Below, one piece after another: positions 6,709 to 58,950 of a stretch of 64,000 nt of DNA. A program made the position numbers and the translations under genes. The notes beneath the pieces were generated by a model. It worked only from the letters and a program-made list of their open reading frames with translations. It made no database searches and had not been told where the DNA came from. Source of the stretch: Candidatus Segetimicrobium genomatis (GTDB taxonomy: Bacteria > Sysuimicrobiota > Sysuimicrobiia > Sysuimicrobiales > Segetimicrobiaceae); NCBI GenBank assembly GCA_005882275.1, contig VBAK01000108.1, positions 3,317 to 67,316 on the forward strand. The letters run 5' to 3'. The number at the start of each line of letters is the position of its first letter. Within the stretch, counting starts at the first letter, position 1.

Positions 6709-7723
6709 TCCGGGAGACCCGGCAGACGGCAGCCCGGCAGGGCCGGCAGGCGGCAGCCCGGCAGGGCCGGCAGGCGGCAGCCCGGCAGGGCCGGCAGGCG
6801 GCAGCCTCCCGGGGTGGCTCGGGCGCCTCCGCGCCGGGCTGGCCAGAACCCGCCAGTCGCTCACCGCCCGGGTCGATGATCTGCTCGGCCGGGGCGTCGA
6901 CGAACGCTTCTACGAGGAACTGGAAGAGACGCTCGTCCAGGCCGACCTCGGCGTCCGCACCGCCACCACCGTCATCGCCCGCCTTCGGGCGCGGGTCCGC
7001 AGCGGTGCCGTCAGCCCGGACGCCCTCCGGCTGGAGCTGAGAGCGATCGTGACCGCGGCGTTGGGCGAGCCGGCGGCCCTCGTCCTCACGCCCCCTCCGG
7101 CGGCGGTGATCCTCCTCGGCACCAACGGCAGCGGGAAGACGACCACGGCCGGCAAGCTGGCGGCGCGCCTGCGGGGAGAAGGGAGGAAGGTGCTGGTCGC
7201 GGCCGCGGACACGTTCCGCGCGGCGGCCATCGACCAGCTGGGGATCTGGGCCGCGCGCGCCGGCGTGGAGGTGATCCAGCACCAGGCCGGGGCGGACCCT
7301 GCCGCGGTCGTCTACGATGCGGCCCAGGCCGTGCGGGCCCGGCACATCGACGTGCTGATCGTGGACACCGCGGGCCGGCTGCACACGAAAACGAATCTCA
7401 TGGCGGAACTCACGAAGCTCGACCGCGTCCTGCGCCGCGAACTGCCCGCCGCTCCCGTGGAGGTCCTCCTCGTGCTCGATGCCAATACCGGGCAGAACGG
7501 CATCGCGCAGGCCCGGCAGTTCAAGGCCGCGCTTCCGGTCACCGGGATCGTCCTCACCAAACTTGACGGCACCGCGCGCGGGGGCGTGGTGGTGGCGATC
7601 GCCGAGGATCTCGGGCTGCCGGTGAAGCTGATCGGATTCGGCGAAGGCCCGGACGACCTCCAACCCTTTGACCCCCGGGCGTTTGCCGAGGCGCTGTTCG
7701 TCCCCGACGCGCGCCCGGCGTGA
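6701..7723 (+). CDS. ftsY: Signal recognition particle receptor FtsY
   Basis: NG domain motifs [32 protein letters not shown]. The only canonical in-frame start is TTG 6701, which overlaps the smc stop by 8 nt. The N-terminus is a Gly/Pro/Ala repeat. Confidence 0.92.
6716..6806 (+). repeat. 24-bp tandem repeat (about 3.3 copies of cggcagcccggcagggccggcagg) encoding (GSPAGPAG)n at the FtsY N-terminus
   Basis: Direct reading: identical units at 6727-6750, 6751-6774 and 6775-6798, with partial copies on both sides. Confidence 0.9.
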
Positions 7724-42126: not shown

Positions 42127-42191
42127 CAGGCGTCCCCTCCGCGGCCCGGGCAGGAAATTTTCACCTCGTCCCGAACGCCACACCTCCGGGG

Positions 42192-42313
42192 ACGGCAGGC
42201 AGAGGTTGCCCCCTCCGGGGACTCCAAACCGACGTAGAGATGACGGCAAGCAGAGGTTGCCCCCTGCGGGGACTCCAAACCGACGTAGAGATGACGGCAA
42301 GCAGAGGTTGCCC
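42192..42313 (+). repeat. 51-bp tandem repeat, 2.4 copies (locus R1 of a dispersed element family)
   Basis: Units at 42192-42242 and 42243-42293 differ at 2 positions. A 20-nt partial third unit runs to 42313. Unit: acggcaagcagaggttgccccctgcggggactccaaaccgacgtagagatg. Confidence 0.9.
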
Positions 42314-42376
42314 ACCGGAATCAGGCAGCGGCGGACACACGTTATCGTGTACAGAGAGAACACGGGGGAGAACCAT

Positions 42377-44167: not shown

Positions 44168-46090
44168 TTGATGCGGCGGGCGAGGGCGTGGCGGTCCGGC
44201 CATGCCCTCCTCGTGCTTTGCGGGCTCGCGTTGCTCTACCGGCCCGCGGTGTTCTTCCCTCCTCCGCCGCTTGCCCACGCCCGGGCGGCGTCCTCCTCCG
44301 GAGCGGACCGACGGCTCGATGTCCGGCTGGGTTTTGGCGGAATCGTGAAGATCGGTGTGCCGCTTCCCCTCGAGGTCGTGCTGCCTCCGCTGCCTGCCTC
44401 GGGCCCCGCGGAGATGGTCGTCGACGCGCCGGCCCTCGGCCCCCAGGCGGGACAGGTCGTGACCACGACCGCCGTCCCGTTCGAGTCGGTGGCGGACACG
44501 GTCCGGGTGGTTGAGGCGCCGGTCGTGATCAGTGACCCCCGGCGCCCATTGAAGGTCCGGGTGACGGTGCGCGGGCAGCAGGTGCTCGGGACCTCCGCGG
44601 CCGTCTCGCCCGAGCACGTCGGCGGCCGCCTGGTGGTGGCGGTCTCCGACGACCCCACGGGACTTGCGGCGCTGCACCGGCTTCCCGGGCGCGTGGCGGT
44701 CGCCTACGTCACCGCGGAGGCGCTGCCGCGGCGCTGGCAGGAGTACGCCGCGGTGGATCTCCTCGTGATCCGGGACCTCGATCCGGCGGCCCTCGATGCC
44801 GCCCAACAACAGGCGCTCCTCCGATGGGTGCGCCTGGGCGGGCGCCTCCTGGTGGTTGCGCGATCCGCGGCGGCCGCGCAGAGCGCGGAGACGGCAGGAT
44901 CGCCGGGCGGGCGCGGGCCGGCCTTGCCCGCGGCCCTCGATCCTCTCCTCCCGGCGGATGTCGGGCCCGTTCGGGCGCTGCCATCGGCCGCCGGGCTTGC
45001 CGGGCACTACGGGGGCACCATGCCCTCCGGCCCGCTGACGGTCGCGACGCTGCGGCCCCGAGCGGGGGCGGGGCACGTCGATCTGAGCGGCGTCCCGGTG
45101 ATCGCGTCCGCAGGCCCGGGACCGGGGGTGGGGCAGGTGATCATCTGGGGCTTCGATCCGTGGCGGCCGCCGCTCGCGGAGTGGAGCGGCCGCCTGCGGC
45201 TGTGGGAGGAGGCGCTGGGGAGCGAGCCCGCGCCGCGCGTCGATGCGGAGGGGCTGGCCGCGCGTCTGGCGGCAGGCACGCCGCTCGATCCCGCGGTGCA
45301 CGCGCAGGTCCTCGGCGCGATCCTCCTCTACGTCGCGCTGCTGCTGGGCCTGCGCCGTTGGAAACCGACGGTCGCAGGGGCGGCGGCTGCGCTGCTCATC
45401 GTGCTCGCCGCGCTGGGGGCGTTTCCGGTCCTCGCCGGGATGGTCCGCGACCGTTCGGCAACGCTGGCGCAGGTGACCATCATCGAGCCCGGGGGTGGGG
45501 CAGGGAGCGCGCGCGCCACGACCGTCGCCGCGGTCGCGGTGCCGTACGGCGGCCGTTACCGTGTCACGGCCGCCCCCGCGGAGATGCTCGCCGAACCGCT
45601 GACTCCGGCGAGCGACCTGCGGGTCGTTCTCGGCCGCGCCGGCTCTGAGCTCACGGGGGTGCTGCGCTCCGGCGATCCGCCGCGCCCGTTTCTGGCGGTC
45701 GGCGCGATCCCTCTGTCCGCCTCCGCGGTGCTCTCCCGTGACGGGCGCAGCCTCGCGGTGGATCTGGGACCCCTCCGCGCCAGCCGTGTGGAGCTCCGAT
45801 GGCGCGACCGGCTCTACCCGCTGGCCGATCTTCCCGCCGGCCGCACCCTGCGCGACCTCCGGCCCGACGGATGGATCGCCGCTGCCTCAGACGGGCGGCC
45901 GTCGTCGGATTGGTCGGCGCGCGTGCGGGACGTGATCTTTGAGGGGGCTGGGGCCGATGCTATACTGAAAGGCGCAACACCGGTGCTGGCCGGTGAGCTC
46001 GACGGCATCGCGCCGGTGTTCACGCTCGGAGGCGCGGGAGCGCCGGGCCAGCGGCTGACCGTCCTGCTGGTACCCCTGGAGCGGAGGTAG
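44168..46090 (+). CDS. Hypothetical membrane-anchored protein (640 aa), first large gene of the MoxR operon
   Basis: Starts 1 nt after the FmdB stop. N-terminal signal/TM segment and central TM pair (AILLYVALLLGL, ALLIVLAALGAFPVLAG). The segment DLLVIRDLD...LLRWVRLGGRLLVVA resembles GATase1-like DUF4350/GldG-type domains (inference). Confidence 0.65.
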   Translation: MMRRARAWRSGHALLVLCGLALLYRPAVFFPPPPLAHARAASSSGADRRLDVRLGFGGIVKIGVPLPLEVVLPPLPASGPAEMVVDAPALGPQAGQVVTTTAVPFESVADTVRVVEAPVVISDPRRPLKVRVTVRGQQVLGTSAAVSPEHVGGRLVVAVSDDPTGLAALHRLPGRVAVAYVTAEALPRRWQEYAAVDLLVIRDLDPAALDAAQQQALLRWVRLGGRLLVVARSAAAAQSAETAGSPGGRGPALPAALDPLLPADVGPVRALPSAAGLAGHYGGTMPSGPLTVATLRPRAGAGHVDLSGVPVIASAGPGPGVGQVIIWGFDPWRPPLAEWSGRLRLWEEALGSEPAPRVDAEGLAARLAAGTPLDPAVHAQVLGAILLYVALLLGLRRWKPTVAGAAAALLIVLAALGAFPVLAGMVRDRSATLAQVTIIEPGGGAGSARATTVAAVAVPYGGRYRVTAAPAEMLAEPLTPASDLRVVLGRAGSELTGVLRSGDPPRPFLAVGAIPLSASAVLSRDGRSLAVDLGPLRASRVELRWRDRLYPLADLPAGRTLRDLRPDGWIAAASDGRPSSDWSARVRDVIFEGAGADAILKGATPVLAGELDGIAPVFTLGGAGAPGQRLTVLLVPLERR

Positions 46091-46103
46091 GCAGGAGGGC
46101 GCC

Positions 46104-46808
46104 GTGGGGAATCCGGTGTTGCGTGGGGATCTCCGGGCCCGAAGCCGAAGCCCCAAAGTCTGGGTCCTCGAGGCCGTCTACCTCGGCGTCCTCGGGGCCC
46201 TGGTGTTCCTGGGTCTCCCGCCGGAACTCGGACGGCTCGCGGGATCGCGCGACCCCAGCCTGTCCGTGGCGGTGCTCTGGGTCCAGATCGTGCTCCTCAC
46301 CTATTACGCGTCCGCGTGTCTCGCCCAGGAGATCCTGGTGGAAGGCGAGAAGGCGGCGGTCGATCTCGTCTTCGCGCCGTTCCCGGCCGCAGTGATCGTC
46401 GGCGGCAAGAGTCTGTCGTCCCTCGTCACGATCCTCTACTGGCTGCTGCTCGGGGCTCCGCTGCTCGTCCTGACCGCGGCGATCCGGCAGATCCCGATCG
46501 GCTCGCTGCTCTCCGCGGCGGGGCTGATCGCCGTGGTCGCCTGGGGCATCGGGCAGATGGGCCTCCTGTACAGCGTGCTCTTCGAGGCGGAGTTTTCGCG
46601 GACGGTGGCCCACTGGATGACGCTGCTGGCGATCTTTGCCGGCACCACCCTTCTTCCATCTTCGCTGCGGTCGCTGAATCCGGTCGAGGCCACCACGGCG
46701 GCGGCGGGCGGGTTCCCGCCGGCCATCGCGGTCGCGGCGTATGCGGGGCTGGGGGCGTTCTGCGGGCTCTGGACCTGGGGGCGACTGCGGAGGCTGGCGG
46801 CGGCATGA
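46104..46808 (+). CDS. Polytopic membrane protein, ABC-2/GldF-like permease resemblance
   Basis: AGGAGGG SD before GTG 46104. About 6 hydrophobic segments. N-terminus NPVLRGDLRARSRS resembles ABC-2 type permeases (weak, from memory). Confidence 0.6.
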   Translation: MGNPVLRGDLRARSRSPKVWVLEAVYLGVLGALVFLGLPPELGRLAGSRDPSLSVAVLWVQIVLLTYYASACLAQEILVEGEKAAVDLVFAPFPAAVIVGGKSLSSLVTILYWLLLGAPLLVLTAAIRQIPIGSLLSAAGLIAVVAWGIGQMGLLYSVLFEAEFSRTVAHWMTLLAIFAGTTLLPSSLRSLNPVEATTAAAGGFPPAIAVAAYAGLGAFCGLWTWGRLRRLAAA

Positions 46809-48379
46809 CGCGCGAAGCCGAACTCCTCGGGCGCCTGCTCGGCCGCGTGCAGCGGCGGTTGGCCGTCGACCGCGCGCTCCGCTGGGTCGCGCGGACCGCC
46901 GCCGTGACGGCGTGGTCGACCCTGGGGTGGGCGCTGGCCACGATGGCCGTGCCGATACGGTTTCCCATTCGCGCGGTGGTGGCGGTGGAAGCGGCGGGCC
47001 TCGTCGCCGGCCTGGCGCTGCTGGTCCGGCTGCGCCGTCCCGGGATGCTTGCGGCGGCTCGATGGACGGACCGGCGGCTCGGGCTGGCAGACCGCCTGAG
47101 CACGGCCGTGGAGCTCCTTGCCGCCGCTCCGGCGGCCGCGGGGCCCGGCGGGATGGCGCGCCTCCAGATCGCTGATGCCGCGGAGGTCGCGCAGGGGATC
47201 GTCCCGCGCGCGGCCGCGCCGGTTGCGGTCCCGAAGGAGAGCTGGATGATCGTGGCGTGCGCGGTCGGTCTCGTCCTGTGGGCGCAGTTCCTCCAGGGCT
47301 GGACGATTCCCGGCTGGCCGGCCGCCCGCACTGCCGCGGTGATCCACAGCGAAGGCCGCGCGCTCGTGACGATCGCCCGGCAGCTCGACGCGGCGGCGCA
47401 AACACGCGGGCTTCCGGAGGCCCGCCGGACCGCACCGCAGCTCCGGGACCTCGGACGGAGGTTCCTGGGCGCGCGCATCTCCCGCGAGGAGGCGTTGGGT
47501 CTCCTCGGGGAGGCGACCCGCCGGCTCGAGACGGCGCAGAACCGGATCGAGCGCCGCATCGCGGCCGCAGGGTCCCGGGGAACATCCGGCGCGCGCGATG
47601 CGCGCGCGCCGGCGATTCCCGCCGGGCCCGAGCGTTTCCAGCAGGCGATACGCGAATTGGAAACGCTGGCGGACGCGCTCCAAAGCCGGAGCGCGCCGGA
47701 AGCCCGCGAAGACCTCTCGCGGCGCTTGAGCCGGTTGTCCGAGTCGCTGGACGACATGAACGCGCCCGCCTCTTCCCGGCGCAGTCTCGAGGCGGCGCGC
47801 CGCGACGTGGAGCTCGGCCGGCTGCCGGCGGGGGCCACGGCGCTCGGCGACGCCGCTGCGGATCTTCGGAGTCTCGAGCGGATGCTGGGGGATGCGCAGG
47901 CGCTCGGCGAGGCGCAGCGGCAGGTGCAGACCTCCGCGGACCGGATCGCCCGAGGAGGGCCGCTCGGCGGCAGCGCCGCGACGACAGAACCATCTCCGGC
48001 GGAGCCCGTGACGGCGCCGGCCGCGGCGGGCCCCAACCCCGTGACGCCGGGTGCGGAGGCCGGCGCGCCTCCGCCGCCCGGGCCCAACCAGGGGAGCCTG
48101 CCGGGCGAGGGGCGCGGACCGGCTCCGGGCGCGCCGACCCGGCGGCCCGGGGTGACCCCAATCGAGAAGCACCTGACCGGCAGGCAAGGCGAGGGACCGG
48201 CGGCGGCGCGAGACCTGCTGGCGCCCGGGCGGATGGGATCCCCGCGCATCCCGGCGGCTCCGGTGCCGGCGGATGTGGCGCACGAGAACGATCGCGCGCT
48301 CGGCCAGGAGCCCATTCCGCCCGCCTACCTGACCATGATTCGCCGGTACTTCGAAACCTTGGGGACCGCCGCCCCATGA
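46805..48379 (+). CDS. Hypothetical membrane protein (524 aa) with coiled-coil and Pro/Ala-rich regions
   Basis: ATGA overlap with the upstream stop. Two N-terminal TM segments plus a third. C-terminal motif IPPAYLTMIRRYFETL. The upstream part of the 46316 ORF overlaps the previous gene in another frame. Confidence 0.6.
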   Translation: MTREAELLGRLLGRVQRRLAVDRALRWVARTAAVTAWSTLGWALATMAVPIRFPIRAVVAVEAAGLVAGLALLVRLRRPGMLAAARWTDRRLGLADRLSTAVELLAAAPAAAGPGGMARLQIADAAEVAQGIVPRAAAPVAVPKESWMIVACAVGLVLWAQFLQGWTIPGWPAARTAAVIHSEGRALVTIARQLDAAAQTRGLPEARRTAPQLRDLGRRFLGARISREEALGLLGEATRRLETAQNRIERRIAAAGSRGTSGARDARAPAIPAGPERFQQAIRELETLADALQSRSAPEAREDLSRRLSRLSESLDDMNAPASSRRSLEAARRDVELGRLPAGATALGDAAADLRSLERMLGDAQALGEAQRQVQTSADRIARGGPLGGSAATTEPSPAEPVTAPAAAGPNPVTPGAEAGAPPPPGPNQGSLPGEGRGPAPGAPTRRPGVTPIEKHLTGRQGEGPAAARDLLAPGRMGSPRIPAAPVPADVAHENDRALGQEPIPPAYLTMIRRYFETLGTAAP

Positions 48380-49395
48380 ACGATCCCGTCTCCCGCGAGG
48401 TCGAGGATCTTCGTTCCGCGTGCGAGGCGCTTCGCGGGGAACTCGCCCGGGTCATCGTCGGCCAGCGGGAAGCGCTCGACCTCGTCATCACGGCGCTGCT
48501 GGCCGGGGGGCATGTGCTCCTGGAGGGGGTCCCGGGGCTCGGGAAGACCCTTCTCGTCCGGACCCTCGCCCAGACGCTGGACCTGCGGTTCTCCCGCATC
48601 CAGTTCACGCCCGACCTCATGCCCGCCGACATCCTCGGCACCAACCTGGTCGTGCAGGACGACGCCGGCCGCCGGCGGTTCGAGTTTCAGCCCGGGCCCA
48701 TCTTCGCCCAGATCGTGCTGGCAGACGAGGTCAATCGCGCGACCCCGAAGACGCAGTCGGCGCTCCTCGAGGCGATGCAGGAACACGCCGTCACGGTCGC
48801 CGGCGAGTCGCGCCGGCTCGAGGAGCCCTTCTTCGTTCTGGCGACCCAGAACCCGATCGAGATGGAGGGCACCTATCCACTGCCGGAAGCCCAGCTCGAT
48901 CGATTCCTGCTGAAGCTTCGCGTGCCGTTCCCCGGCCTGGAGGATCTGCAGGCGATCATCGATCGGACGACGGGGCCCGACGAGCCCGCGGTGCGGCGGG
49001 TCGCCGACGGCGCGGCCGTGCGGCGGCTGCAGTTGCTGGTCCGCCAGGTCCCCGTCGCCGGCCACGTGCGCGAGTACGCGGCGCGGCTGGTGCTGGCGAC
49101 GCATCCTGAGTCGGACGGCGCCTGCGCGCTGGCCCGCCGTTTCGTCCGCCACGGAGCGAGCCCGCGCGGGATGCAGGCGTTGATCCTCGCCGGGAAAGTT
49201 CGCGCCCTCGCCCTCGGGCGGTTCAACGTCGCGATCGAAGATGTCCGCGCCCTCGCGCTGCCGGCGCTGCGCCACCGCATCATTCTGAACTTCGAGGGTG
49301 AGGCGGAGGGGGTGGATGCCGACGATGTGCTCCGGGCGGCCATGCAGGAGGTCGAGGCCCCGGATCTCCCGGCCGGGCCGCGCGAGGCGCGATGA
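48376..49395 (+). CDS. MoxR-family AAA+ ATPase
   Basis: ATGA overlap with the upstream stop. Walker A GVPGLGKT, Walker B LADEVNRATPKTQSALLEAM, ATQNPIEMEGTYPLPEAQLDRF. Confidence 0.93.
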   Translation: MNDPVSREVEDLRSACEALRGELARVIVGQREALDLVITALLAGGHVLLEGVPGLGKTLLVRTLAQTLDLRFSRIQFTPDLMPADILGTNLVVQDDAGRRRFEFQPGPIFAQIVLADEVNRATPKTQSALLEAMQEHAVTVAGESRRLEEPFFVLATQNPIEMEGTYPLPEAQLDRFLLKLRVPFPGLEDLQAIIDRTTGPDEPAVRRVADGAAVRRLQLLVRQVPVAGHVREYAARLVLATHPESDGACALARRFVRHGASPRGMQALILAGKVRALALGRFNVAIEDVRALALPALRHRIILNFEGEAEGVDADDVLRAAMQEVEAPDLPAGPREAR

Positions 49396-50477
49396 CGGTA
49401 TCGTTGCCCCCTGCGGGGACGCCAAACCAGAGTGGAGCCAGCAGCAAGCAGAGGTTGCCCCCTGCGGGGACGCCAAACCAGAGTGGAGCCAGCAGCAAGC
49501 AGAGGTTGCCCCCTGCGGGGACGCCAAACCAGAGTGGAGCCAGCAGCAAGCAGAGGTTGCCCCCTGCGGGGACGCCAAACCAGAGTGGAGCCAGCAGCAA
49601 GCAGAGGCTGCTTGATCCGGGCTTTCTCCAGAAGCTCGAGGCGCTGAGCCTGCTGAGCCGGAAGCGGGTCTGCGGCGTGCAGCGCGGGGAGCGACGCAGC
49701 ACCGCCCGCGGACGCGGCGTGGAGTTCGACGATTACCGGGCGTACCAGCCCGGCGACGACTACCGGTATATTGACTGGAACGTCGTCTCGCGCCTCGACC
49801 GCCTCTTCATCAAGCTCTTCTCCGAAGAAGAGGATCTCGACGTCCTCCTCATGGTCGATACCAGCGCGTCGATGGCGGCGGGTCATCCGAGCAAGCTGCT
49901 GCTCGCCAAGCACCTGGCCGCCGCCGTGGGCTACATCGGCCTCGCCAACCTCGACCGGGTGGGCGTCAGCGCCTTCGCCTCGACGGCCGGGGCCCGCCTG
50001 GAGCGTCTGCGGGGCCGCGCGCGGGCCGGGGACCTGCTCGGGTTCCTCGAGAAGCTCGAACCCTCCGGGGAGACCGACCTCCTGGCGGCGATGCGCCGGC
50101 AGTTGGCCGCGTCCCGCCGCCGCGGGCTGCTGGTCCTCCTGACGGATCTGTTCGATCCCCGGGGCTACGAGCGCGCGCTGCTGCTGGCCCGCGCCCGCCG
50201 GTTTCAGACGTTCCTGATCCACCTGCTGGCCGACGAAGAACTGGCTCCGCGTCTCGCCGGTGACCTCCGGCTGGTGGATGCCGAGACGGGGCGCGCGGTC
50301 GAGGTGACGGTGGATGCCGAGGCGCTGCGGGCGTACGCGGCGGCGCGCGACGCGTTCTTCCACGGCATCGAGCGGTTCTGCTTCCACCACGGCATCGACT
50401 ATCTGCGCACCACGACATCGGTCTCCGTGGAATCACTGGTCCTGCGGTGGCTGCGTCAGGGAGGGCTCGTCCGGTGA
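49392..50477 (+). CDS. DUF58-domain protein (vWA-like fold) with repeat-encoded N-terminal extension
   Basis: ATGA overlap with the MoxR stop. GVEFDDYRAYQPGDDYRYIDWNVVSR and MIDAS-like VDTSASM are DUF58 hallmarks. Residues 5-72 are (LPPAGTPNQSGASSKQR)x4. Confidence 0.85.
   Translation: MTVSLPPAGTPNQSGASSKQRLPPAGTPNQSGASSKQRLPPAGTPNQSGASSKQRLPPAGTPNQSGASSKQRLLDPGFLQKLEALSLLSRKRVCGVQRGERRSTARGRGVEFDDYRAYQPGDDYRYIDWNVVSRLDRLFIKLFSEEEDLDVLLMVDTSASMAAGHPSKLLLAKHLAAAVGYIGLANLDRVGVSAFASTAGARLERLRGRARAGDLLGFLEKLEPSGETDLLAAMRRQLAASRRRGLLVLLTDLFDPRGYERALLLARARRFQTFLIHLLADEELAPRLAGDLRLVDAETGRAVEVTVDAEALRAYAAARDAFFHGIERFCFHHGIDYLRTTTSVSVESLVLRWLRQGGLVR
49403..49606 (+). repeat. 51-bp tandem repeat, 4 perfect copies (locus R2 of the dispersed element family), in frame within the DUF58 ORF
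   Basis: Units 49403-49453, 49454-49504, 49505-49555 and 49556-49606 are identical: gttgccccctgcggggacgccaaaccagagtggagccagcagcaagcagag. Confidence 0.95.
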
Positions 50478-52258
50478 CCCTGGGCGCGCCGGCCGCGCTG
50501 TGGGGCCTGCTGGCCGTCCCGTTTCTCATCCTCCTCTACCTGCTGCGCGTCCGGCGCAGGGACCATCCCGTCAGCAGCGTGCTCCTGTGGCAGCGATCCG
50601 CGGCGACCCTGGCCGCCTACCGCCCGTCGCGGCGAATCGAACGCAGCCTGCTGCTCCTGCTCCAGATCCTCGCGACGGCGGCCCTGGTGACCGGCCTTGC
50701 CCGGCCCGCGGTGATCTCCCCGTACGCGCCCGGCGATCTCCTCCTGGTGCTCGACCTCTCCCTGTCCATGCGGGCGCGCGATGTCTCGCCGACCCGCTTC
50801 GATCGCGCCCGCAGAGAGGCGCTCGAGGCCGCCTCGCGCCTGCGGGCGGGCCAGCGCGCGGGCGTGGTGATCGCCGGCGCCCGCCCCGAACTGCTCGTCC
50901 CGCTGACCTTCGATCGCGCCAGGATCGCGGCCGCGCTGCGGGGGCTCGAGCCCCAGGACGCGTCGGGCGACGTCTCAGGCGCGGTGGCGCTGGCCGCCGA
51001 ACACCCCCTCGGGCCTGGGGGACGGATCCTGGTCTGGACCGACGCCGCGCGCGGCCCGCTCCCCGCGCTGCCGCAGGAGGTCTACCGGATCCTTGGCACC
51101 TCCGACGACAACGCGGGGATCACGATGTTCCGCGCCGCGCACGGTCCGGACGGCGCCGAGGCGCTGCTCCGCGTCGACAACTTCAGCGGGCGCCCCCGGC
51201 GGATCCCGGTCGACGTCACCCACGAACGGACCGAGGTGTACCGCGGCACGCTGGACCTGCCGGGCGGCGGCTCCCGGACTGTCGTCTTCCCGGTCCCCGC
51301 CTCCGGCGTGTTTCAGGCCCGGCTCGTCGCGCACGACCTGCTGCCGGACGACGATGTCGCCTCGGCGGTGCTCGACCCTGCGCCGCTGCCCGCGGTGCTC
51401 CTGGTGAGCCAGGGGAATCCCTACCTCGAACGGCTCCTCCAGGTCCTCCCCGTCGCCCGCGCCGTCGAGACGCGCACCGCGGATCCACGGACCTGGGGCG
51501 CCTTCGGAGTCGTGATCCTGGATCGCACGGATCCGGGACCCGTTCCGCCCGGCGACTACCTCATGATCGACGCCGTCGCCCCCAACATCCCGGCGGCCGC
51601 GGCGGGCGAGGTCGGCGGTCCCCGCTTCGCGACGTGGGACCGGACCGATCCCATCTTGCACTACGTCGACCTGAGCGGCGTGCGGGTTGCGCGCGCGCTC
51701 GCGCTCGCCCCGCAGGGCGGCCGCGTGCTGGCCGGTGGGGACGTCCCCCTCCTGTGGGCGTACGAAGGCGGGGGGATCCGCGCGCTCGTGCTCGGGTTTG
51801 CGCTTCAGGATTCCGATCTTCCACAGCGCGTGGCCTTTCCGATTCTCATGGCCAACAGCCTGGCCTGGCTCGGCGGAGGGGGGCTGGAAGTCCGGGCGGG
51901 AGAGGCCCTCCAGGTTCCCGCCGGCGGCGCCGCCGCGGCAGACCTCATCCATCCCGACGGGCGCCGCCAGGTCGTGCGGGCGGCAGAGGGGATGTTGCTC
52001 CTCCCACCGTTGACCCGCGCCGGCGTCTACCGCCTGCGGGGGCCGGGGGGGGACCGCGAGATCACCGTGCTCAGCGCCGACCGGCGCGCCGGACTCATCC
52101 GGCCCGGGACGGCCCCGGCCACGGCCCGCCCCGCCGGGCCGGGCGGGGGACTGCTCTCGAGTCAGGTGCCCCTGTGGCCCTGGTTCCTCCTGGGCGCCGT
52201 GGGCGTCGCCGTGGGGGAGTGGGTCCTCGCCACCCGGCGCCCGGGAGGCGAAGCATGA
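50474..52258 (+). CDS. BatA-like protein: N-terminal double-TM domain plus vWA domain
   Basis: GTGA overlap with the DUF58 stop. PAALWGLLAVPFLILLYLLR (Bat N-terminal type), MIDAS LVLDLSLSM, C-terminal TM. Confidence 0.8.
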   Translation: MTLGAPAALWGLLAVPFLILLYLLRVRRRDHPVSSVLLWQRSAATLAAYRPSRRIERSLLLLLQILATAALVTGLARPAVISPYAPGDLLLVLDLSLSMRARDVSPTRFDRARREALEAASRLRAGQRAGVVIAGARPELLVPLTFDRARIAAALRGLEPQDASGDVSGAVALAAEHPLGPGGRILVWTDAARGPLPALPQEVYRILGTSDDNAGITMFRAAHGPDGAEALLRVDNFSGRPRRIPVDVTHERTEVYRGTLDLPGGGSRTVVFPVPASGVFQARLVAHDLLPDDDVASAVLDPAPLPAVLLVSQGNPYLERLLQVLPVARAVETRTADPRTWGAFGVVILDRTDPGPVPPGDYLMIDAVAPNIPAAAAGEVGGPRFATWDRTDPILHYVDLSGVRVARALALAPQGGRVLAGGDVPLLWAYEGGGIRALVLGFALQDSDLPQRVAFPILMANSLAWLGGGGLEVRAGEALQVPAGGAAAADLIHPDGRRQVVRAAEGMLLLPPLTRAGVYRLRGPGGDREITVLSADRRAGLIRPGTAPATARPAGPGGGLLSSQVPLWPWFLLGAVGVAVGEWVLATRRPGGEA

Positions 52259-55005
52259 CCGCCCCGGTCGCGTTCACGCACCCGGCGGCCCTCCTGCTGC
52301 TCCCTCTGGTGCTGCTGGCGGTGCGGCTGGGCCGGCGCCGTTCCGGATGGCGCTGGCGTGCGGCGACCGCCCTGCGCGCCGCGACCCTGGGGCTGCTCAT
52401 CGTCGCGCTCGGCGGTCCGCTGCTGCGCGCTCCGCTGGCCGGGGTCGCCGTGGTCTTCGCCGTAGACCGCTCGCTCAGCATCACCCCCGAGGGGCAGCGC
52501 GCCGAGGCCGCCTTCGTCCGCGAGGCGCTCTCGCGGATGCGGCGCGACGACCGGGCGGGGGTGATCGCGTTCGCCGGGAGTCCGCTGCTGCAGGTACCGG
52601 TGGAGGCGCACCCGGCGGTCGAGGACCTGGGCCGTCCGATCGATCCGGACGCGACCGACATCGGCGCGGCGCTCGGCCTTGGGCAGCGGATGCTGGGCGA
52701 GGCCGGCGCGCGGCGCATCGTCCTCCTCAGCGACGGCGCCGAAAACCGCGGGGATGCCGCCGCGGCCGCGCGCGTGGCCCGCGCCGCCGGGGTGGCCGTG
52801 GACGTGGTGCCGATTGCCGCCGGCCGGCCCGACGAGGTGCTGGTTGAGGCGTTGACGGCGCCGCAGGACGTCCGCGCGGGGGAAGCCTACGAGATCCGGG
52901 CCGTGGTCCGCTCCACGGTCCCTGGGGAGGCCGCCGTGACGCTCTCGCGCAACGGCGACCCCGTAGAGGTGCGGCGCGTTCGGCTCGCGCCCGGGCAGAC
53001 GGCGGTCCCGTTTTCCGACATCGCCCGGCGGGAGGGAGCGGTCCGGTATCGTGTCGACGTCGCCGCGTCCCCCGACACGATTTCGGAAAACAATCACGGA
53101 GACGCCATCGTGGTGGTGCGGGGCCGGCCCCGCGTGCTCTTCGTCACGGCGAGCCCCACGCGCCTGCCCGCGTGGCTCAGCGGCCAGGGACTGCGCGTCG
53201 ACGTGCGGCTTCCCGAGGAGGTGCCGGCGCAGGCGACCGGCTTCGTCCCCTATGGAAGCCTTGTGCTGAACGATGTGCCGGCGCTCGACCTCACCCAGGC
53301 GCAGCAGGAGGCCATCCGCGCGTTCGTCGGCACGGCCGGCGGCGGCCTCGTCGCCATCGGCGGGGGCCACAGCTACGGCGTCGGGGGGTACGCCGGCACC
53401 CCGCTCGAGGAGATCCTTCCCGTCACGATGGACGTCCGGCAGACGGTGGCGGTGCCCACCGTGGCCATCGTCCTGATGATCGATACGTCGGGGAGCATGG
53501 ACGCCTTCGGCACCGAGGTCGCCAAAGAGGAGCTGGCGAAAGAGATCGCGTCTTCGGTGATCGACCTGCTGGGAGCGCACGACCTGATCGGGGTCATCAC
53601 CTTCGACCAGGAGTACCGCTGGCTTGTGCCGCCGACCGAGGCCCGGAACCGGTCGCGGGTGTTGGAGCAGATCGCCCGGCTCAAGGCGGGCGGCGGCACG
53701 GTGATGGCCCCGCCTCTGCGGGCCGCCCGGGAGTACCTTCGCGCCACCCCCGCCAGGATCCGGCACGTCATCGTGTTGAGCGACGGCCTCACCGACCCCG
53801 GGGACTTTCCCGGGATCGTCGCCGCGATGACCCGCGACAAGATCACGCTGAGCTCGGTCGCGATCGGCCGGGATGCCGACACCGAGTTCATGCGCAACCT
53901 CGCCCGGTGGGGCGGGGGACGCGCCTACGTCGCCAAGGATCTGTACAGCGTGCCCAAGATCTTTACCGCCGAGGCGTTGATGGCGGTGCGGGCGTTCATC
54001 GTCGAGGAGCCGGTCGTGCCCGCGCCGGTCGGCGCGGGACCGACCCTGGCGGGGCTCACCCCCCCGCCGGCGCTCCGCGGATATGTGGCCACGGTCGCGA
54101 AGCCCCTGGCGGATGTCGCCCTCGTGACCCCTCGGCGAGATCCTCTCCTTGCCACCTGGCGATACGGGCTGGGGCGCACCGTGGCGTTCACCTCAGACGA
54201 CGGGCTGCGGTGGACCGCCCCCTGGGGGTCCTGGCCCGACGTCGCGCGGTTCTGGTCGCAGGCGATCCGCTGGACCCTGCCGGTTGATGCGGCGGGCCTG
54301 CACCTCGCGGCGGCGGTCGGCGCGGGCGGGAGCGAAGCGCGCGCCGTCCTCGATGCCCGCCGGCCCGGCGGCGCGCCCTGGGATGGGCTCGATGTCAACG
54401 GGGACGTCACGGGCCCGGGCGGCGAGCGCCGATCGATCGTCCTGGAGCAGACCGGCCCCGGCCGCTATGAGAGCACGTGGCCGGCGCCCCGGCCCGGCAC
54501 GTACACCCTCACGCTGGCCGCCCACGACGCCCGGCGCCTCGCGGCCACCCGCACCGTCGGGCTCGTCGTGCCCTATTCCGCCGAGTACCGCCTCCCGGAC
54601 GGGAACCCGGCGCTGCTCTCCCGGTTGGTCGAGACGACCGGGGGCGCGTTCCTCGCCCGGCCGGAGGACGCCTTCCGGCCTGGGCGGGGAACCGGCGAGC
54701 GCGAGGCGTGGCCCGCGCTCACCGGCGCGGCGCTGGGGTTGTGGCTCGCGGAAATCACCCTCCGGCGCCTGCCGGCGCTGGGCCAGCGCCTGGTCGCCTT
54801 CGCCGGCGCCGCCGCGCACTGGGCCGGCCGGAGGGAGGCGGCGTCGCGTACGGCCCGGGCCGAGGCGGATGCGTCCTACGATACCGCGGATCGCTGGGCG
54901 GTCGAGGAGGCGCGGTTTGCGGAGGAAGAAACGCTGCGCGCCGCGTCGATGGAGCAGGCGGCCCGCCTCTTCATCGCGCGCCTGCGGGGAACAAAGCGGC
55001 GCTAG
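52255..55005 (+). CDS. Large vWA-domain membrane protein (916 aa; two vWA/MIDAS modules plus GATase1-like middle region)
   Basis: ATGA overlap with the upstream stop. Same N-terminal double-TM pattern (FTHPAALLLLPLVLL). MIDAS FAVDRSLS and MIDTSGSM. LVLNDVPALDLT...FVGTAGGGLVAIGG. C-terminal TM. The six-frame ORF from 50314 is an out-of-frame upstream extension. Confidence 0.8.
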   Translation: MTAPVAFTHPAALLLLPLVLLAVRLGRRRSGWRWRAATALRAATLGLLIVALGGPLLRAPLAGVAVVFAVDRSLSITPEGQRAEAAFVREALSRMRRDDRAGVIAFAGSPLLQVPVEAHPAVEDLGRPIDPDATDIGAALGLGQRMLGEAGARRIVLLSDGAENRGDAAAAARVARAAGVAVDVVPIAAGRPDEVLVEALTAPQDVRAGEAYEIRAVVRSTVPGEAAVTLSRNGDPVEVRRVRLAPGQTAVPFSDIARREGAVRYRVDVAASPDTISENNHGDAIVVVRGRPRVLFVTASPTRLPAWLSGQGLRVDVRLPEEVPAQATGFVPYGSLVLNDVPALDLTQAQQEAIRAFVGTAGGGLVAIGGGHSYGVGGYAGTPLEEILPVTMDVRQTVAVPTVAIVLMIDTSGSMDAFGTEVAKEELAKEIASSVIDLLGAHDLIGVITFDQEYRWLVPPTEARNRSRVLEQIARLKAGGGTVMAPPLRAAREYLRATPARIRHVIVLSDGLTDPGDFPGIVAAMTRDKITLSSVAIGRDADTEFMRNLARWGGGRAYVAKDLYSVPKIFTAEALMAVRAFIVEEPVVPAPVGAGPTLAGLTPPPALRGYVATVAKPLADVALVTPRRDPLLATWRYGLGRTVAFTSDDGLRWTAPWGSWPDVARFWSQAIRWTLPVDAAGLHLAAAVGAGGSEARAVLDARRPGGAPWDGLDVNGDVTGPGGERRSIVLEQTGPGRYESTWPAPRPGTYTLTLAAHDARRLAATRTVGLVVPYSAEYRLPDGNPALLSRLVETTGGAFLARPEDAFRPGRGTGEREAWPALTGAALGLWLAEITLRRLPALGQRLVAFAGAAAHWAGRREAASRTARAEADASYDTADRWAVEEARFAEEETLRAASMEQAARLFIARLRGTKRR

Positions 55006-58075: not shown

Positions 58076-58105
58076 GCCGGGAAGACGGTCAGGTGGGGGT
58101 GCGCG

Positions 58106-58399
58106 ATGCGGATGGGAACGGACCGGGGAGGGGGCGTGCTCGCGGGAGCCCTGGGGATCGCCGTCTTCCTCATTGGAGCCCTTCTGCTCCTGGCCGTCTT
58201 CTACTTCGCCTACACCGAGTTGATCGCCTCCGGCGCGCTGTCGTCCTCGTCGGGCGCCTCATCGCCGTCGGGCGGCCTGGCGCTGCTGGTGGCGACGAAG
58301 GGGCTGTTCCTGTTCATCATGGGGTTCGCGGCCTCGGCCATCGCGAACAAGGGCATCGGCCTCTACCAGGTGGCGCTGCATGCCGAGCGGGAACCGTGA
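58106..58399 (+). CDS. Hypothetical small membrane protein (97 aa, two TM segments)
   Basis: ORF with two clear hydrophobic spans (GALGIAVFLIGALLLLAVFYFAY; LFLFIMGFAASAIA) separated by a Ser-rich loop. Confidence 0.5.
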   Translation: MRMGTDRGGGVLAGALGIAVFLIGALLLLAVFYFAYTELIASGALSSSSGASSPSGGLALLVATKGLFLFIMGFAASAIANKGIGLYQVALHAEREP

Positions 58400-58427: not shown

Positions 58428-58487
58428 CTCCGACTTCTGCTTGCTGTTTGCTCCATTTCGGTTTGGAGTCCCCGCAGGGGGACTTCT
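58428..58487 (-). repeat. Solitary inverted copy of the 51-bp element family (locus R3)
   Basis: The reverse complement reads gagaagtccccctgcggggactccaaaccgaaatggagcaaacagcaagcagaagtc. The 25-nt core tccccctgcggggactccaaacc matches R1 exactly. Confidence 0.85.
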
Positions 58488-58587
58488 CGCATCGATCGGC
58501 GTTCGCGCCGCAGGCAGGGACGCCTTCGAGGCGGAACTATAGACAGGCAGGTGTTCCAGTCCACCCCAATGTGAGGGAAGGTGCGCT

Positions 58588-58950
58588 GTGGAGCTGAAGA
58601 TTGGTGTCCGCAACGTGGGGGAAACGACGATCCTGGATGTCGCCGGAGAACTGGACCTCTATACCGTCCCGCGCCTGGATGAGGGGTTGCGCACGGCCGC
58701 GAGCGCGGCCCGGCCGCTGCTGGTGGTGAACCTGGCCGGCGTCGCCTATATCGACAGCACGGCCCTCAAGATCCTGACCGACCACCAGAAGCGGGTTCGG
58801 GCGCTCCACGGAGAGCTCGCCGTCGTCGCCGGCCAGCCGGCGATCGCCAAGATCTTCAAGATCACCGGGCTCGACAAGGTCATGTACGTCGTCGCCACCG
58901 AGCGCGAGGCCCTCGAGAAAGTCAACGTCGATCGCCCGGCAAAGTCGTGA
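58588..58950 (+). CDS. STAS-domain anti-sigma-factor antagonist (SpoIIAA/RsbV type)
   Basis: ILDVAGELDLYT...L, phosphorylatable-serine context [30 protein letters not shown] before the GTG. Confidence 0.88.
   Translation: MELKIGVRNVGETTILDVAGELDLYTVPRLDEGLRTAASAARPLLVVNLAGVAYIDSTALKILTDHQKRVRALHGELAVVAGQPAIAKIFKITGLDKVMYVVATEREALEKVNVDRPAKS

Follow-up and report, generated by a model that had tools for sequence, protein, structure and literature searches.

The tandem array at the junction of the MoxR and DUF58 genes of Candidatus Segetimicrobium genomatis ('Bacillati bacterium ANGP1'; phylum Candidatus Sysuimicrobiota) is very probably one locus of a lineage-specific interspersed minisatellite (VNTR) family with a 51-bp unit, analogous to the MIRUs of mycobacteria and carried by Candidatus Segetimicrobium-like soil bacteria; at this locus, the repeat lies in frame in the leader of the DUF58 gene. 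The DNA that was analysed (hereafter, the window) is a contiguous stretch of 64,000 nucleotides. The 51-bp family is apparently undescribed so far, and its candidate phylum is represented by metagenomes alone: Rfam contains no match for it, and full-text literature searches on ANGP1 and Segetimicrobium gave nothing relevant.

The array (Table 1) consists of four identical units of sequence GTTGCCCCCTGCGGGGACGCCAAACCAGAGTGGAGCCAGCAGCAAGCAGAG, each of them 17 codons long. The original prediction of four perfect units was confirmed both in the sequence itself and by TRF, which calls positions 49403-49611 with a period of 51, 4.1 copies, 99% matches and a score of 411. Furthermore, a 28-nt core pattern has five matches in the window, against 0.00 expected from 100 shuffles. 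The exact number of four copies in the window comes from the assembly and not from reads; the array itself is present in many independent assemblies.

Table 1. Positions of the junction array, of the neighbouring genes and of other copies of the 51-bp family (window coordinates, except for the contigs named in the first column).
Feature	Positions	Strand	Remarks
MoxR-type AAA+ ATPase gene	48376-49395	+	directly upstream of DUF58
ATGA	49392-49395	+	DUF58 ATG overlapping the MoxR TGA stop
DUF58/VWA gene	49392-50477	+	361 aa; residues 1-72, start and repeat-encoded tail; conserved core from residue 73
Four 51-bp units of the dispersed family	49403-49606	+	nhmmer 50.7 bits each, E ~1e-14
Partial fifth unit, GCTGC	49607-49611	+	GTTGC at the same place in other alleles
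Second array, spacer from rhomboid to archaeal-type AdoMet synthetase	42183-42345	+	partial unit, two full units, degenerate third
Solo unit	58436-58481	-	slightly degenerate; 44.6 bits; antisense to flanking genes (+)
Promoter-linked copy, contig L031	5028-5246	-	
Promoter-linked copy, contig L009	2367-2450		
Promoter-linked copy, contig L035	1130-1200		
Promoter-linked copy, contig L039	12348-12440		

The genes at the junction belong to a seven-gene operon (44168-55005, plus strand) with five 4-nt start/stop overlaps. It comprises three upstream genes without a significant Pfam match (one with a weak DUF4350 match), followed by MoxR (AAA_3, 2e-64), DUF58 (1e-37, the domain starting at residue 114 of the 361-aa protein), a BatA-VWA gene and a gene for a 916-aa VWA/GATase1-like protein; the BatA and VWA assignments are likewise from Pfam. 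This order is kept in three related contigs (L046, L047 and L050). Just as predicted, the unit continues the frame of ATG 49392. This ATG, with a GAGG 4 nt upstream, shares an ATGA with the MoxR stop, and the same 4-nt coupling recurs at four other junctions of the operon, three times as ATGA (46808, 48379, 52258) and once as GTGA (50477). The product of the ORF 49392-50477 reads MTVS(LPPAGTPNQSGASSKQR)x4 LLDPGFLQKLEAL. Of the tandem and intercistronic architecture originally proposed, the tandem part stands; the array is not strictly intercistronic, being located inside the variable N-terminal leader of DUF58 and fused to it in frame. Promoter and terminator predictions at the DUF58 junction gave none.

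Several codons could, in principle, start the DUF58 protein in this frame: (i) ATG 49392; (ii) TTG 49404, 49455, 49506 and 49557; (iii) CTG 49608; and (iv) the next canonical one, GTG 49677, which falls within the conserved DUF58 core. The claim that no in-frame ATG, GTG or TTG lies between TTG 49557 and GTG 49677 proved correct, as did the other factual statements of the original prediction. Its corollary, namely, that the options are translation of the repeat or the use of a non-canonical start, is supported; the conserved Leu73 codon after the array is CTG here. This codon (49608-49610) encodes the first residue of the conserved core (LLDP), a leucine which is nearly invariant and internal among 120 DUF58 homologues. 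Window-type alleles have this CTG where other alleles have TTG, the only alternative start beside the core, and at that TTG the GAGG abuts the codon with zero spacing.

The ATGA-coupled ATG is in frame with DUF58, and the frame is free of stops, in every allele examined; hence, translation of the repeat into an N-terminal tail of variable length is probable. The frame is kept despite a 12-nt difference in the left border between allele types, and also in those alleles that PGAP or the JGI caller annotates from a later TTG. Actually, the annotated lengths of this same DUF58 gene are 289, 306, 310, 323, 327 and 361 aa: PGAP and JGI give 289 aa, counted from the TTG that follows the array (L001/P0125, L055-L057), and 306-361 aa result where other callers choose the ATGA-coupled ATG (L046/P0001). 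Out-of-frame alleles were considered and rejected, the three 289-aa calls being the gene caller's choice of start: in L056 and L057 the upstream DNA is present and the ATG is still in frame, and contig L055 ends inside the array. Translation most probably begins at ATG 49392 and reads through the array, and on balance it is likely that the array is expressed as a tolerated, disordered N-terminal tail. In an AlphaFold2 model (42 homologues), no secondary structure is predicted for residues 1-72 (pLDDT 32-42); helices begin at residue 76, and pLDDT rises to about 90 in the core. Pfam finds no match within residues 1-72. The differences among alleles are mostly non-synonymous (T/A, S/T/D, K/R, Q/R, P/S).

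The comparison of the MoxR-DUF58 junction in related genomes (soil contigs of Candidatus Segetimicrobium/ANGP1), recommended in the original prediction, revealed from none to two units depending on the relative, against four in the window. Three groups can be differentiated: (i) relatives with about 84% nucleotide identity (L047, L049) have the MoxR TAG stop, 4-6 nt, an ATG and a leader of 7-16 codons with no repeat, and their MAT spacer (that of the second array) is also empty; (ii) relatives with about 92% identity (L001/L027, L046, L056, L057) carry 0.8, 1 or 1.8 diverged units; and (iii) contigs with 99.6-100% identity to the window across 7-17 kb carry one unit (L050, L051) or two (L052, L053, L054), the second unit of L053 and L054 having the same G to T change. 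This last group bears out the claim that the expansion is recent. The array of the MAT spacer is unchanged in L050 and L052, the near-identical contigs that cover it. The four-copy state is seen in the window only and is the most expanded allele found. Most of the contigs compared are megahit (k141) or JGI assemblies of short reads, in which the size of a perfect 204-bp repeat can come out wrong.

Across the whole family, mean identity is 99% between units of the same array and 74% between units of different sites (at positions free of search-pattern bias), and therefore the dispersal of the unit is old and its local amplification or homogenisation recent and ongoing. As for the DUF58 locus, the ancestral unit would have inserted into the short leader, whose codons are not conserved, that separates the DUF58 start from the LLDP motif. 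Since the unit is 17 codons long and free of stops, it stayed in frame with DUF58. Slippage or unequal recombination between identical units may then have changed the copy number, giving rise to 1, 2 and 4 copies, and read-through of the array would add to the protein a disordered tail of variable length, rich in Pro, Ala, Gly, Ser and Gln, which the protein tolerates. The repeat tail is probably near-neutral rather than of designed function.

The 51-bp unit is by no means restricted to this junction. A search for the unit and its core in other places, as had been suggested, revealed two further sites in the window; in related soil contigs, the unit occurs at some 22 distinct sites. The second array of the window, also detected by TRF (51-bp period, 42191-42313), has its full units at 42205-42306, a third unit that is degenerate and carries a deletion, and degenerate partial units on both sides; the neighbouring AdoMet synthetase gene belongs to PF01941 (1e-152). 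Both arrays have the core GCAAGCAGAGGTTGCCCCCTSCGGGGAC in common and differ in their variable segments; the guess of a shared 36-nt core holds for this second array. Its unit count differs in L046 and L027, and it is absent in L047. The third site is a solo unit between a 107-aa ORF (58076-58396) and a gene for a STAS-domain protein (58543-58947), both on the plus strand. In addition, a small inverted repeat (ACACG-TTAT-CGTGT) with a purine-rich stretch occurs at 42330-42376, between the second array and the AdoMet synthetase start; it has no Rfam match and, in consequence, is no known SAM riboswitch.

The exact core pattern was found at 45 loci, that is, six in two soil MAGs and 39 in metagenomes, and an nhmmer census with a profile of the unit gave 46 arrays at about 22 distinct sites, with 1 to 5.9 units each. 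The consensus can be written as GTTGCCCCC-NN-CGGGGACTCCAAACC-(variable 8-15 nt)-AAC-N-GCA-N-GCAGAG. Arrays start at a small hairpin, (T)CCCC-loop-GGGGAC, whose CCCC/GGGG stem is invariant and whose loop varies, and finish at ...GCAGAGGTTG. Outside the search pattern, the GCAGAGGTTG block (at least 92%) and the AAC and GCA blocks are highly conserved. In the assemblies, copy number varies at other sites too (1.9, 3.9 and 5.9 units; 2, 3 and at least 3.9; 1 and 2).

According to Pfam and GC3-filtered ORFs, on which the gene contexts outside the window are based, the units are flanked by mutually unrelated housekeeping genes, which encode MetE, Mrp, PepX, TrkA, ribosomal protein L25, PGI, RarA/MgsA, PBP1, glycogen synthase, ABC transporter components and a class II aminoacyl-tRNA synthetase. 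They occupy operon junctions, divergent and convergent spacers, the inside of an ORF and antisense positions; one site lies 2 nt after tRNA-His and another directly upstream of the tRNA-Ala promoter. Where flanking genes are co-directional, about nine sites are in sense and two in antisense orientation, a modest bias. The unit is coding at one of the approximately 22 sites (DUF58) and non-coding at almost all others, and the next start codon lies some 9-70 nt from the array. With regard to reading frames, the LPPAG frame is free of stops in 30 of 34 units, and two other frames in all 34. The conserved blocks (GCAGAGGTTG and the hairpin), together with the sense bias of about 9:2, hint at some constraint beyond that of pure junk.

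A number of element classes were considered for the unit and rejected: (i) a structured RNA, with a covariation of 0.073 versus 0.073 in shuffles (a value reached in 223 of 500 of them), an RNAalifold consensus reduced to the invariant 4-bp stem, unremarkable single-sequence fold z-scores (+0.9 to -1.7) and no Rfam hit for the unit at the gathering threshold or at E up to 10; (ii) a CRISPR array, given that the variable 15-nt segment is identical within an array and that no Rfam CRISPR-DR matched at E up to 10; (iii) a REP/RAYT element, the hairpin being of only 4-5 bp and the arrays strictly direct; (iv) a MITE, as the two ends of the unit (GTTGCCCCC... and ...GCAGAGGTTG) do not form terminal inverted repeats; (v) a unit-borne ORF conserved throughout the family, following the MIRU coupling model, because LPPAG is not the best-preserved frame and the spacing to the next start is variable; and (vi) a conserved DUF58 protein domain, excluded by the N-termini of homologues. 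Among the 29 ORFs that flank units in these genome fragments, there is neither a transposase or RAYT gene nor a recurrent neighbour. All arrays end with the tetranucleotide GTTG, which also stands before some of them; the left border is variable (GTTG|CCCCC versus T|CCCC), so that a clean target duplication is not apparent.

At three sites, the terminal GGTTGC of the unit forms a -35 hexamer located 17-18 nt before TATAAT or TATAGT, and two of these sites precede the genes for tRNA-Ala(CGC) and ribosomal protein L25. The L25 promoter of a second genome keeps a degenerate remnant of the unit. Old copies of the unit seem to have been built into strong promoters.

Other explanations of the junction array can be weighed against the translated minisatellite. 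It is possible, but rather doubtful, that the array is largely untranslated, in which case DUF58 would start at TTG 49557 or CTG 49608, leaving the larger part of the array as a spacer between cistrons, and the ORF from ATG 49392 would be at most a coupling upstream ORF, accidentally fused. There is an in-frame TTG in each unit, and both PGAP and JGI start several alleles (P0125, P0124, P0126, P0132) at the TTG before LDP. Nevertheless, a GAGG with zero spacing makes these TTGs poorly served by Shine-Dalgarno pairing, while ATG 49392 has its GAGG at 4 nt and an ATGA coupling of the kind found at four other junctions; moreover, the TTG is mutated to CTG in window-type alleles, the candidate start codon encodes a nearly invariant internal Leu in homologues, and the ATG is in frame in all alleles. 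At the opposite extreme, the 17-aa repeat could be a selected, functional N-terminal repeat domain of the DUF58 protein, as the constant frame and a unit that is a multiple of three might suggest, yet this is highly improbable. The core of 120 homologues starts at LLDPxFLQKLExLSL, preceded by unconserved leaders of 0-42 aa, and among these 120 best DUF58 homologues the 17-aa repeat occurs only in alleles with about 94% identity or more, which answers in favour of a DNA element the question, raised in the original prediction, of whether unrelated DUF58 proteins share it. The DNA unit is also non-coding at almost all its other sites, the LPPAG frame is not the best preserved, the changes among alleles are mostly non-synonymous, and the region is predicted to be disordered.

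The count of four copies, or the copy differences between contigs, might instead be an assembly artefact of a perfect repeat exceeding the read length. A perfect repeat of 204 bp, comparison contigs that come mostly from short-read megahit (k141) or JGI assemblies, and a four-copy state confined to the window are all compatible with this explanation, which is nonetheless unlikely: one unit was recovered in two independent assemblies and two units in three, the G to T change marks the second unit of L053 and L054, and 4-6 units were assembled at other sites. Besides, the assembly of a one-unit contig at k=141 should require 141-mers reaching from one flank to the other, and a genome with four units could not provide them. 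An equally small probability is attached to the view that the units are cis elements (binding sites of a regulator or nucleoid protein, promoters or RNA motifs) whose copy number tunes the expression of downstream genes. The conservation of the GCAGAGGTTG, AAC and GCA blocks, an invariant hairpin stem with a varying loop, the bias towards sense orientation and the GGTTGC hexamers at three sites (tRNA-Ala and L25 included) are in line with it, and in M. tuberculosis the copy number of promoter tandem repeats affects adaptation (PMC12817950). But no helix covaries, no Rfam family matches at E up to 10, neither a promoter nor a terminator is predicted at the DUF58 junction, the contexts are mixed (from a position behind a tRNA gene and a spacer of convergent genes to antisense and intra-ORF copies) with unrelated neighbours, and the spacing to the next start varies from about 9 to 70 nt. 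A bolder and still less probable proposal is that the unit, with its 17 codons and almost no frame containing a stop, is an active, frame-neutral mobile module which inserts at gene boundaries of Sysuimicrobiota, donates -35 hexamers to strong promoters (those of tRNA-Ala and L25) and acts as a contingency locus that, through changes in copy number, tunes translational coupling or the length of the N-terminal linker of the MoxR-associated DUF58/VWA protein; if true, this would represent a new system of mobilisation and regulation in an uncultured phylum.

Among known repeats, the closest parallel of this minisatellite family is with MIRUs. As summarised in PMC3184786 and PMC12548453, MIRUs are elements of 40-100 bp, present at some 40-50 loci, co-transcribed in operons and variable in copy number (Supply et al., 1997). 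The same two summaries describe sites that are filled or empty, and ORFs whose stop overlaps the next start (coupling at -4). The 51-bp family resembles them in (i) a unit length within the 40-100 bp range; (ii) direct tandem arrays at many dispersed intergenic sites, often within operons and co-oriented with the genes; (iii) a GC-rich internal inverted repeat; (iv) filled and empty sites between relatives and a strain-variable copy number, here taken from short-read assemblies; and (v) at the DUF58 locus, a repeat ORF joined to the upstream stop by a 4-nt overlap. In contrast to the MIRU ORF, which stops at the next start (-4), the array here is fused in frame to DUF58 and, in consequence, has no stop overlapping that start. 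The 51-bp family has no specifically kept frame and its next start lies at a variable distance; hence, the MIRU parallel is one of analogy, not of membership. The host phylum is also a different one (Sysuimicrobiota), and the likeness is of architecture, with no known sequence relationship. In short, the 51-bp family shares with MIRUs the tandem architecture, the dispersal, the VNTR behaviour and, at this locus, the upstream ATGA overlap, whereas the originally proposed overlap with the downstream start and a coupled ORF throughout the family do not hold.

Other families share single traits with these repeats. REP/BIME elements are sequences of about 35 bp, typically arranged in inverted pairs and mobilised by RAYT transposases. 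Both they and the 51-bp unit are abundant, intergenic, and have a small GC-rich hairpin after a conserved tetranucleotide (GTAG in REP, GTTG here), but the arrays described here are head-to-tail with a 51-bp period, and there is no RAYT gene in the available DNA. BOX elements of Streptococcus pneumoniae contain a boxB module of about 45 bp in tandem, within a boxA-boxB(n)-boxC arrangement whose terminal modules pair; they can affect the expression of neighbouring genes and occasionally overlap ORFs (PMC3184786). A short module in variable number at dispersed intergenic sites is common to both, but no terminal modules were seen in the 51-bp family. Rickettsia RPEs, described as palindromic elements of 105-146 bp, not in tandem and many of them inside ORFs (Ogata et al., 2000, cited in PMC3184786), are another case of a selfish repeat tolerated in frame in a coding gene, to which it adds a peptide segment; the 51-bp family differs in being coding at a single site. 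Finally, the tandem repeats of M. tuberculosis promoters vary in copy number within near-isogenic populations (PMC12817950), and some arrays of the 51-bp family likewise abut promoters, although the DUF58 array has no promoter-like site.

The 51-bp loci could serve as strain markers, akin to the MIRU-VNTR typing loci of mycobacteria, and they are likely spots of misassembly and of systematic inconsistency in the annotation of starts. The DUF58 locus is a clear case, found in nature, of an intergenic repeat that became part of a coding region, since the length of its unit is divisible by three and the unit contains no stop; the understanding of MoxR/DUF58 systems is left unchanged by the repeat.

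The window also contains an unrelated tandem repeat at 6719-6806, with 3.7 copies of a 24-bp unit (CCGGCAGGCGGCAGCCCGGCAGGG), 98% identity and a TRF score of 169.
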